A stretch of 64,000 nucleotides of DNA from Eledone cirrhosa (lineage: Eukaryota): the NCBI GenBank assembly GCA_964016885.1, contig OZ024741.1, forward strand, positions 254,138,001-254,202,000, read 5' to 3'. This document shows, in pieces, positions 19,593-55,156 of this stretch; the first letter of the stretch is position 1, and every line of letters begins with the position of its first letter. Below the pieces are notes generated by a model that searched no databases, had not been told where the DNA came from, and worked only from the letters and a program-made list of their open reading frames with translations. The position numbers were made by a program, and so were the translations under genes.

Positions 19593-19618
19593 TCAACTTG
19601 AAGGTTGGGAATGTTCAT
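19593..19618 (-). CDS. Gene B last coding exon: (D)EHSQPSS*
   Basis: ttttttctttgtattctttcAG acceptor; tandem TGA TGA; AATAAA downstream. Confidence 0.75.
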
Positions 19619-19769
19619 CTGAAAGAATACAAAGAAAAAACATGAGGAAGGAGAGAAAGGGAGATATTCATAAGTTTCTTTTTGGAGAAAGAAAGTCTAG
19701 CATGATATTTAGGATTAATGGGTCCCTCTGGAAATATCATGACTGAAAAGCAGATTGTACGATGCTTTT

Positions 19770-21130
19770 GTATGAACAGCGATGCTGCATGGAAATGAGA
19801 TATGGACACTGTGGGCAGAGGATCTTTGAAGATTGGAAAGAAATGAAGCTTGTATACTTTGACAGATGTGTAATAGTAGTGGGCATGAATGATGAGGTGT
19901 AAATGAACTAAGAGAAAAATTGGGTATAAGAGAAATCAAATGCAGTATGCAGAAAAGAAGATGGTAATGGTACGGACATGTGATGCATAGTATGGAGGAT
20001 GACAAATGTATAAAAAGGTGCAGGGTGCTCAAAAGTGATGGAAGCTATGGAAGAGGAAGAGATGGAAAAATTTAGGATGAAGTGATATAAGCTGACCTTG
20101 CACAATTAACCCTCTCAAAGAAGATGACACAAGATTGGGTTCTCTCATGTTATGCTGTACTGCAGAAGACCTGCCTTCCCATGTGCACAGGAAGGAAAAC
20201 CATGTAGAGTACACTAGCCTGCAACTAGCATTTCCCTCCTCCTCCCTCATTTACCTTCCCTAGTGTTGATATCCTCACCCACACCAACTAAATACTCTAC
20301 TCACCTCATCCATGCCCAACTTGTATATGCCATCCCCTTCCCACTATACACACACCTATGATATCTCTCTCATTACACTCAACCCTTACATAGAAGCGTG
20401 GAAAGTTGTATATGCTCCAAAATCTGCCCCCCCCTTCCATAATGCTGCTGCTGCTGCTATGACAAAACACACTTTGTCTACACCTCCTACATTTTAACAC
20501 TCCACCCATCATCAGCTAAGTGCCCCATATTAGACCTACCTCTCAAATCCCCAACCTGCATATATGTACCACACCCTCATCTTCACACCGTCCACATCCG
20601 ATACACCTCACTTGTACAACCCATGCAGACAAGCACGGAAAGATGGACAAGCTAACCAAGAATGCTGTTGAAATTGTTAAAAGCTTCCAGCCCACCCTGT
20701 AAAGTGGTGTCATGTTGGTGACACAACAAAAGACCCTAGTCCACCATGTAAGGTGCTCATGCTGGTGAAAGAGCACTCTGAATGTTAGTTGTATTGGTAA
20801 CAGGACAAAAAGCACCCAGTCCACCCTGTAAAGTGGTTGTGTTGGTGACGTGAAATAAGCACACAGTCCACCCTGTGAAGCAGTCCTGTTGGTAACAGGG
20901 CAAAAAGCACCCAGTCCAACCTGACATTTTGGTATCATGATAAAAAGCGCCTAGTCCATGCAGTAAATGGGATTGGTATTAGAAAGGGCCTGCAGCCATA
21001 GAAACTAATCCAGAAACAGTTCTGTATGAGCAAGACTTGATCATTTGACCTGACTTGACTGACAATGGGAAAATTCGTCTAATTCATGCTAGCATGGAAA
21101 AATGGACATTAAACAGTGTTGATGATGATG
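19770..21130 (+). mobile_element. Decayed RTE LINE 3' part with 3' UTR and tail
   Basis: Homologous to the other RTE copies (LERNEA, WYGHVM, KADLAQL); UTR has repeated CCAGTCCAC.CTGTAAAGTGG units. Confidence 0.85.
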
Positions 21131-21429
21131 TAAGAGTTCATAGTAAGCACTAGTATATTGTTTCATAGCTATACTACATTTATACATACTGTATCTATCT
21201 ATCCAGTCAACATCTACACAGCAACTATCTAACCATTTACACACTCTATTTGTCCATGTATCCCATCAATATCTACACACTGTCCATCTATCCAGTCAAC
21301 ATCTACACACTCTGTCAATTTATTTCGTCAATATTTAAACACTGCCCGTCTATCCAGTCAACAGCTACACATTCTGTCTATTTACCCTGTCAATATTTAC
21401 ATACTCTGTCTATTTATTCTATCAATATC

Positions 21430-52668: not shown

Positions 52669-52695
52669 GATATGTATCAATATATTTATACTTAC

Positions 52696-52710
52696 GAGCA
52701 GCAGAGTGAA
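52696..52710 (-). CDS. Gene B exon 2 (15 nt): (V)HSAA, probable signal-peptidase site VHS|AA
   Basis: ctttattctttccttacAG acceptor, GTAAGT donor, phase 1-1. Confidence 0.8.
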
Positions 52711-55101
52711 CTGTAAGGAAAGAATAAAGTTTGAGAATATAAATCAAAACAACAATAATTATTATTGGCAATATTATTAGGGCTTTGGGTAAAATGCTTT
52801 GTGGCATTTGTTTCGGCCCTTTACATTGTAGGTTTGAATCCTGCTGAGGTTAGCTTTGCCATTCATCCCTATAAGGTTGATAAAATAAAGTACCAGTTAT
52901 GTATTGGGTCAATTTAATTGATTTTTCCCACCCACAAAATTGTTGGCCTTGTACCTAAATCAGAAATCAGTATTAACAGAGTCCTTGGAGCATTGGTCAA
53001 AATGCCTTGCAGTATTTGTTCCAACATTTTATCTAAACTATAATAAAGAAAGGAGTGTGGGACTGCATCCAGAATATATTATTATCCTGTTTGTAAAATA
53101 AGTTGGATTACTTTGAATAAATAATGAATGAATATTACATAATTTATCTACTAAATTTCGTTATTCTTGATTAAATATAAATAATTTTGTTGTTTATTTT
53201 AAGATTCACTTCTTTAAAATTTTCAAATGTGAACACTTCCGGTTAGCGATCATTTAAATAAACATTCATATATTTCCGTCACTAATTTTCTCCTAATGCA
53301 GATAATATCATCTTTTTTTAATGTATCATGGATTACGTTACTGAATACATAAGACAGTGTGAGGCAGTCTCCATGCATTTTATTTGATGTGTCATATCTG
53401 CATGCATATATATTTGCGTATGATATCAATATACACACTACACATGCTAGCAGAAAACCACCCATGGTTTTTCTGTTAATAATAATAATGAAAATTATTG
53501 TGTACAGTGCTCAGGTGCACTACAACTCATCAAATGTACATGTATAATACATAGAATAATCTACAAATGTCAGAAAAGTAATCAGTGCATCGATTATGAT
53601 ATTTACAGATACACACACATACATGCATGCGTGTGTATAGAGGGGGAATATCAGGTGTAGTGTTGGCGAATTTCAGGAAGCATGGAAGTTTTGGAGGATG
53701 CAGTGTCCCGACAGCTAACTACCTATGCAGGTAATTTGTTCCATGCTTCAGCAACTCCGAGCATGAAAACATGTTTCTGAAAGTCATGGGAGCTGTGCTA
53801 TTCTGAGTTCAAATCCTGATGAGGATAATTTTTGACTTTTATCCTTCAAAGTTTGATAAAATAGCAAATGGTGTTCTGGGTTGATATAATTGATTAGTTC
53901 CTCCCACAAAATGTTTGGCATTGTGATTATGTAAGAAATTTTTTTTTTTTTTTTTTTAGCATGCGCACCAGGTCACAGATTTTAGAGATATGTAGTTGAC
54001 TATACCAAGCCAAGTACACCACTGGGAATTTATATTTTATCAACCCAGGAGGATAATCTTAGGGAGGGGGAATTTGAAATTCTGAACATAAAGTGTTGAA
54101 ACTAAATTTACTACAAGGTGTTTTGTCTGCTGCTCTAAGGAGTCAGCTAATTGCATGCTTTAAAATCAACAACAACAACTTCTGCGGATCACTCATGTAG
54201 AAAGCCCACAAAGAAACCATGGTCACCCTGACCATGGGGCAAGTGTTCCCTCCCAGTTGTCCTCCAATGTACACGTATATACTCAGAGCAGGCCCTTTTA
54301 CTCAGACTATGATTATCACTCGCATTCACCTTTCAACAAATATGTTGGAAGGCAACACTTCCTTTCCACCCTGATTTGCTTGTTCAAGGGAAACGTGAAA
54401 AAGTTAATCAGGACCTTTGCCAAATAGGAAAGCGCTTGTCCTCAACCCTGTCAAATACATCCAGCACAGCAACTCTTTCGCCATGGACATCAGGCAAATA
54501 AAAGCAGCCTGCCCTCCCTAGTGGGGCAATCTTTGTGATGGACTCAACTGATAACTGCAACCATCCTATATGTGATAGTGGGTGTTTGACATAAACCTAC
54601 AACTCAGCAATGGGGAATAGAAGCATATTAATGACAAACTTCCTATTTGATGTGATGCCGACATGGTAAAAAAGCACCCAACCCACACTGTAAAGTATTC
54701 ACTTAGTTGTCGTGACTGCAGTTTCATTGAGTAACCTCAGTTTTGAGCACTGTGAAAAATCTCTACTCATCAGGGAACTTCGCGATCAAGAAAAAAATTC
54801 TGATGAGTTATCCGCTACCAGCGATAATTTTGAATGGGAGAATTATCACATGATTTACAGCCAACAGAAGGGCAGCAGTATGTGGACAATGGCAAGTAAC
54901 GGGGCTGCTAGAGGCAGTCTGATTCAGTCAAATTTATTTTACTCAACCACAAAGGAGAAATTTACAAATTTATTGAAGATTATATATATATATATAAAAT
55001 GATGAAATTATTTGCAGTGTAATGAGTGAAAACAGTAAATTAATAAAAGTAAAATTAAGATACAATAAATGAACTGTGTATACAGTTAAAATTTTTCTTA
55101 C

Positions 55102-55156
55102 CTTCAACAACCAAGGCAAAAGCCACGAGCACAACAAGAGTAATTGGTATCTTCAT
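55102..55156 (-). CDS. Gene B exon 1: signal peptide MKIPITLVVLVAFALVVE
   Basis: ATG-K plus hydrophobic core; 55 nt; AG|GTAAGA donor (phase 1); TATA about 55 nt upstream. Confidence 0.85.

Follow-up and report, generated by a model that had tools for sequence, protein, structure and literature searches.

Six short exons on the minus strand

The stretch of the Eledone cirrhosa genome analysed here (assembly GCA_964016885.1, contig OZ024741.1, positions 254,138,001-254,202,000), hereafter called the window, comprises 64,000 nucleotides and carries on its minus strand a candidate gene for a small histidine-rich secreted peptide, split into six very short exons (Table 1). When the exons are joined by their coordinates, they give 198 nt, which are read in frame as 65 codons and a stop, so that the splicing and the 65-residue product claimed in a preliminary description of this DNA have been reproduced. 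The five introns are, in order, 2391, 13534, 949, 1341 and 17151 nt long, all of them interrupt the frame in phase 1, and each of the four inner exons (15, 39, 42 and 21 nt) is a multiple of three with symmetric 1-1 ends. Every donor (5/5) begins with GTAAG and every acceptor (5/5) consists of a pyrimidine tract followed by YAG, in agreement with the canonical sites described before. The gene spans about 35.5 kb for its few coding bases because most of introns 2 and 5 consists of tandem arrays with units of 76 and 58 bp, respectively. No candidate passed when these two satellite arrays were scanned for extra exons, and the gene model appears to be complete. A stop-free frame of 3871 codons extends from exon 2 across the 76-bp satellite (window 52849-41237, minus strand); it is very probably not coding and follows from the T/C-rich strand. 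An origin of the exons by duplication was considered and rejected: all ten pairs of exons with their flanks score within the range of shuffled sequences, the best being exons 3 and 5, for which 4 of 100 shuffles are as high.

The signals at both ends of the gene are those that had been claimed, a TATA box upstream (at 55211) and an AATAAA downstream (at 19465), the latter about 130 nt past the double TGA. The first T of the TATA box lies 31 nt ahead of the A (55180) in an initiator-like TCATTT, a distance that, with the usual initiator consensus, is the ordinary spacing between the two elements. The palindrome around the TATA box has no spacer and a single mismatched pair, its upstream arm mirroring 24 bp on the gene side; comparable palindromes are not rare, with six in 464 kb. 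Two longer ones, a near-perfect spacer-less palindrome of 162 bp with 81-bp arms (window 3501-3662) and one of 336 bp about 78 kb past the window end, are either fold-back duplications or assembly artefacts.

Table 1. Positions of the exons, intronic arrays and flanking signals of the gene model, counted from the first letter of the window
Feature	Position	Strand	Remark
TATA box TATAAA	55206..55211	-	centre of a 48-bp near-perfect palindrome, 55189-55236
Initiator-like motif TCATTT	55177..55182	-	predicted transcription start 55180; 5' untranslated region about 24 nt
Exon 1, coding part (55 nt)	55102..55156	-	Met-Lys and hydrophobic core of the predicted signal peptide; phase-1 donor, top 0.01%
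Exon 2 (15 nt, phase 1-1)	52696..52710	-	both candidate signal-peptidase sites
76-bp tandem array, non-coding	40110..52669	.	fills intron 2
Exon 3 (39 nt, phase 1-1)	39123..39161	-	highest density of His/Asp, with 7 His among 12 whole codons
Exon 4 (42 nt, phase 1-1)	38132..38173	-	Gly/Asn/Gln/Ser linker, followed by spaced His
Exon 5 (21 nt, phase 1-1)	36770..36790	-	second His cluster
58-bp tandem array, non-coding	21259..35380	.	fills intron 5
Exon 6, coding part (26 nt including TGA)	19593..19618	-	second in-frame TGA behind the first
AATAAA polyadenylation signal	19460..19465	-	followed by T-rich and GT-rich sequence

Splice-site statistics, searches and neighbouring genes

It had also been claimed that His-containing exons found by splice signals and sharing one frame are unlikely to arise by chance. 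Site ranks and candidate counts agree with this claim. A weight matrix was trained on the splice sites of the neighbouring kinase gene (described below), a small set of nine acceptors and eight donors. The five acceptors of the present gene reach 8.2-15.5 bits (kinase 8.9-15.6), which places them within the best 0.02-0.92% of the 56,406 AGs in 464 kb; its five donors, with 5.3-12.1 bits (kinase 5.9-12.7), fall within the best 0.01-3.3% of the 72,682 GTs in the same 464 kb. The acceptor of exon 6 (15.5 bits) is the strongest on the minus strand from exon 5 to the window start. In a relaxed scan of the 35.5-kb span, the candidates with a length divisible by three and no stop in phase 1 were the four inner exons and an extended variant of exon 2, and no others. 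Elsewhere in the 464 kb, none of the 124 candidates of 9-60 nt found at 8/5 bits, and 8 of the 3131 found at 5/3 bits, were divisible by three, had no stop in phase 1 and had a His content of 20% or more. These counts are not p-values, because the 8/5-bit thresholds were matched to the weakest sites of this gene and the requirement for His was added post hoc. A weak candidate with a His run at 5809-5759 was discarded as a (CAT)n microsatellite. An 11-bp satellite about 91-105 kb past the window end produces dozens of false acceptor-donor pairs and contributed 76 of the 112 candidates in one scan.

These numbers bear on the possibility that the exons are an unexpressed relic, or splice-like sites assembled by chance in repeat-rich DNA. 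Splice-like candidates are common at the relaxed thresholds, as the 3131 in 464 kb show, and there is no transcript in hand. On the other hand, only the four inner exons and the exon 2 variant pass in the span, all of them with His in the same phase, and the signal exon, the TATA-initiator spacing, the terminal exon and the polyadenylation signal follow one another in the correct order with no lesion. A relic or a chance assembly is thus regarded as very improbable, and from its sequence the intact-looking six-exon gene is judged with high confidence to be real.

Three sequencing runs, all from one sample, matched exon 6 and the 3' untranslated region; no RNA is listed among them, and they are uninformative on expression, as the assembly itself may have been built from them. 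Run contigs on exons 3-5 continue into the introns like genomic DNA, with no exon-exon joint among the 15 of 617 that were listed, and the genomic contigs that cover exon 3 have no alternative letters listed. Protein searches used single-exon frames only (stop-free frames of 24-37 residues over exons 1 and 3-6), not the spliced product, and blanks obtained with such frames are weak, as an orthologue with only 14 shared residues would probably fall below threshold. Pfam returned no family for any of the five frames, and the ESM Atlas gave a best score of 0.79. The 37-residue frame of exon 4, mostly derived from intron, had a single match in 1.84 billion representatives, which was dismissed as a repetitive unrelated protein with 30% identity. 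The 3.0-Gb assembly itself was searched with the DNA of exons 1 and 6, the frames of exons 1, 3 and 4, and two degenerate patterns; apart from two weak matches (E ~4.5) these searches found no second copy, a result to be taken as a lower bound since distant paralogues would escape. One further candidate (L050) was rejected for having neither a pyrimidine tract nor an in-frame donor. The 200 kb to each side showed no His-rich micro-exon array, and the gene is apparently single-copy. A literature search found no description of the peptide and none of three 8-residue motifs; Supplementary Table 4 of PMC9068888, which lists clade-specific families, was outside its scope. Other octopus annotations may already contain the peptide as an uncharacterised protein.

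The next gene upstream, which lies on the same strand, stops some 9 kb short of exon 1, just beyond the window. It encodes a receptor tyrosine kinase with FN3 domains, recognised by ten exon matches on the minus strand at contig positions ~254,202,300-254,249,400. In the cluster of its relatives, the proteins of Octopus bimaculoides, O. sinensis and O. vulgaris bear the names Mer-like or torso-like, and the exon matches are 44-100% identical to three of them (XP_014775137, XP_029645384, CAI9733574). These identities point to an octopod host that is no near relative of the three species, which supports the cephalopod origin assumed in the preliminary description. This torso/Mer-like kinase can be used as a synteny anchor. 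A 5-kb (AT)-rich microsatellite (window 59014-64000) separates its 3' end from the promoter of the present gene. About 111 kb before the window start, a C2H2 zinc-finger exon on the plus strand is the first recognisable non-transposon gene there among the output listed.

The predicted peptide and its relation to known systems

Residues 1-17 of the precursor are Met-Lys and a hydrophobic core, the hydropathy of the exon 1 product reaching 3.5 in 7-residue windows, which fits the signal-peptide-like N-terminus proposed earlier. By the (-3,-1) rule for signal-peptidase sites, two cuts are plausible, after Ser21 or after Ala23, both within exon 2, leaving a mature part of 44 or 42 residues, respectively. 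The 44-mer contains 16 His, 5 Asp, 3 Glu and no Cys, Lys or Arg, matching the composition given in the preliminary description; in proportions, His makes up 36.4%, Asp and Glu together 18%, Ser 14%, Gly 9.1%, Gln 9% and Ala 6.8%. It has one Tyr and no Val, Ile, Leu, Phe, Met or Trp, Ala being the sole aliphatic kind. With this composition, the peptide is very likely disordered. Its calculated pI is about 6.0, with a charge of about +8 at pH 5 (+8 to +13 over pH 4-5) and about -7 at pH 7. The precursor holds five HH, seven HxH and eight HxxH motifs, and a scan of it for HExxH, GHG, GHGxY and dibasic sites found none; a neuropeptide precursor was ruled out by the lack of a dibasic site. A cut after Ser21 would leave the N-terminus Ala-Ala-His, a pattern of the amino-terminal Cu(II)- and Ni(II)-binding (ATCUN) type. 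This pattern binds Cu(II) and Ni(II), and His pairs bind Zn or Cu, as described for other peptides (PMC8424629). If the gene is real, secretion of its product is highly probable, and it is also quite likely that the peptide would bind metal in vitro.

Histatins are cationic and carry an HExxH zinc motif, whereas the mature peptide here is acidic and lacks Lys, Arg and HExxH, and the comparison is an analogy only. The label 'histatin-like', used in the preliminary description, thus stands for the His richness and the probable metal binding, but not for the charge (about -7 at pH 7), the missing HExxH or the phase-1 introns. The histatins (HTN1/HTN3, of the SCPP family) are likewise small, secreted and His-rich, with small exons and proposed Zn/Cu motifs (PMC10888740). 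Most SCPP genes are described as having phase-0 introns (PMC5118209; PMC10888740), whereas all five are in phase 1 here, and histatins are presented as primate-specific offshoots of STATH in the vertebrate SCPP locus, whereas the present gene is octopod and lies beside a torso/Mer-like kinase. An N-terminal ATCUN pattern (Xaa-Xaa-His), a further mark of histatins, would be present here with a cut after Ser21 and absent with a cut after Ala23. The squid histidine-rich beak proteins (HBPs; DgHBP-1 to -3) resemble the peptide in being cephalopod, His-rich and disordered with a pI of about 6 (PMC11931252). They differ from it in their C-terminal GHGxY/GAGFA pentapeptide repeats (PMC11931252), neither of which occurs here, so that the absence of beak-protein repeats claimed earlier holds. 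Their reported contents of Gly (20-35%), Ala (16-19%) and His (10-16%) contrast with 9.1, 6.8 and 36.4%, and the present peptide is one third of the HBP size, has one Tyr and no Phe in its mature part, and belongs to no cluster that was found. Expression in the buccal mass and coacervation are further marks of the HBPs. The peptide is not a histatin and not a squid beak protein.

The architecture of the gene recalls the micro-exon genes (MEGs) of schistosomes, in which a signal peptide is combined with very short symmetric exons divisible by three and with long introns, and which are easily missed (bioRxiv 10.1101/2023.06.21.545858; PMC4350168). MEGs are described with 10-20 micro-exons and an N-terminal hydrophobic motif, whereas here there are four inner exons, introns of up to 17 kb and no MEG motif, one Tyr being the only large hydrophobic residue after the signal. 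According to their descriptions, MEGs occur in flatworms only (bioRxiv 10.1101/2023.06.21.545858; PMC4350168). The architecture is shared, but no homology is claimed; in-frame exon skipping as in MEGs would be possible by design. Among His-rich secreted peptides of invertebrates, the tunicate clavanins have been shown to bind Zn and Cu, but they are cationic and form a membrane-induced amphipathic helix (PMC8424629), whereas the present peptide has no hydrophobic face. The Gly-His-rich salivary peptides of mosquitoes are also secreted, with metal binding proposed, but are rich in GH repeats (PMC2644710); unlike both groups, the present peptide is rich in His, Asp, Ser and Gln. The Nereis jaw protein NVJP-1 combines high His with Asp/Glu and assembles in a Zn-triggered manner, but it has a mass of 32-40 kDa with 36% Gly and 7% Tyr (PMC9999432), against about 5 kDa, 9% Gly and 2% Tyr here. 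The gene is probably real and of a familiar, convergent type.

A putative metal chelator and its rivals

The best reading of these features is a lineage-restricted, secreted and disordered chelator in which His and Asp would bind metal, and the chances appear evenly balanced that sequestration or buffering of metal is the main role of this octopod, likely disordered peptide of 42-44 residues. Chelation is ranked first because the peptide has the ligands and lacks the features that other roles usually need. Exons 1 and 2 would form the signal peptide, cleaved after Ser21 or Ala23. In an acidic secretory granule, His would be protonated (about +8 at pH 5) and the peptide would be soluble and carry little metal. 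Once it reached seawater or body fluid, the protons would be lost (about -7 at pH 7), and the HH, HxH and HxxH clusters, with Asp and Glu, could then bind several extracellular divalent ions (copper, zinc or nickel), with cleavage at Ser21 exposing Ala-Ala-His as an additional site for Cu(II)/Ni(II). Metal would thereby be buffered or sequestered in mucus, saliva, egg coat or haemolymph and kept from microbes or tissue. His is known for both pH switching and metal coordination (PMC9999432, section 3.4.5), and secreted His-rich peptides of insects have been suggested to chelate zinc (PMC2644710). Several points weigh against a chelator. Neither a transcript or junction read nor a peptide or orthologue has been obtained; metal-response-like elements are not enriched upstream (two in 3.8 kb, with about 1.1 expected); and a cut after Ala23 would leave His-His-Gly and no ATCUN pattern. 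In addition, the antimicrobial activity of clavanins is reported to be independent of the stability of their metal complexes and is said not to be nutritional immunity (PMC8424629), and composition alone cannot tell chelation from cross-linking.

Cross-linking is the basis of the main rival, in which the peptide would harden a chitinous tool (beak, radula or sucker cuticle) as a small His donor in chitin, joined by catechols or metal, and would do in octopods part of the job of the squid HBPs. His enrichment recurs among sclerotised proteins, and the Nereis jaw proteins likewise pair His with Asp/Glu (PMC9999432). The calculated pI of about 6.0 resembles that of HBP-1/2 (PMC11931252), octopods have beaks although HBPs are reported as not found in O. 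bimaculoides (PMC9068888), and beak proteomes are described as having been studied in one species only (PMC9716703). However, bulk structural proteins are rich in His together with Gly (20-50%) and Tyr/Phe (PMC9999432), whereas Gly is 9% here with one Tyr and no Phe; GHG and GHGxY are missing, the mass is about 5 kDa against 15-18 kDa, and no cluster was found, against a squid cluster of ten (PMC9068888). Such a hardening role is therefore considered unlikely, and a more specific form of it, in which an octopod-specific micro-exon peptide replaces the missing beak proteins as a Gly- and Tyr-poor His donor and skippable symmetric exons tune the number of His sites, would be rather more doubtful. 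About equally doubtful is a direct antimicrobial action of the histatin or clavanin type in acidic compartments, where His is cationic, perhaps with Cu or Zn bound to the peptide. The small size, predicted secretion, richness in His, calculated charge of +8 to +13 at pH 4-5 and possible ATCUN start would suit it, and clavanins are active at pH 5.5 (PMC8424629), but a mature part with no Lys or Arg and no hydrophobic face would form no amphipathic helix and is net negative at neutral pH. Nor is there an NF-kB-like site in the 3.8 kb upstream or in intron 1, where few would be expected by chance anyway. Cephalopods depend on copper proteins, and the same His chemistry would fit a pH-triggered part of mucus or egg coat, a binder of haem or pigment, or a donor of copper to haemocyanin or tyrosinase; nothing specific points to any of these, no such gene is among the identified neighbours, and they are held to be slightly less probable still.

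Small secreted His-rich peptides have arisen many times, and the surprise therefore stays modest until expression is known. If expressed, this gene, with 198 coding bases over 35.5 kb, is of a type that annotation based on open reading frames tends to miss, and its product would be a natural 5-kDa poly-His/Asp chelator of a copper-dependent animal, ready for synthesis. Because Octopus is reported to be without the squid HBPs, any secreted His-rich peptide of an octopod, including this one, is a candidate for curing the hard parts of these animals.

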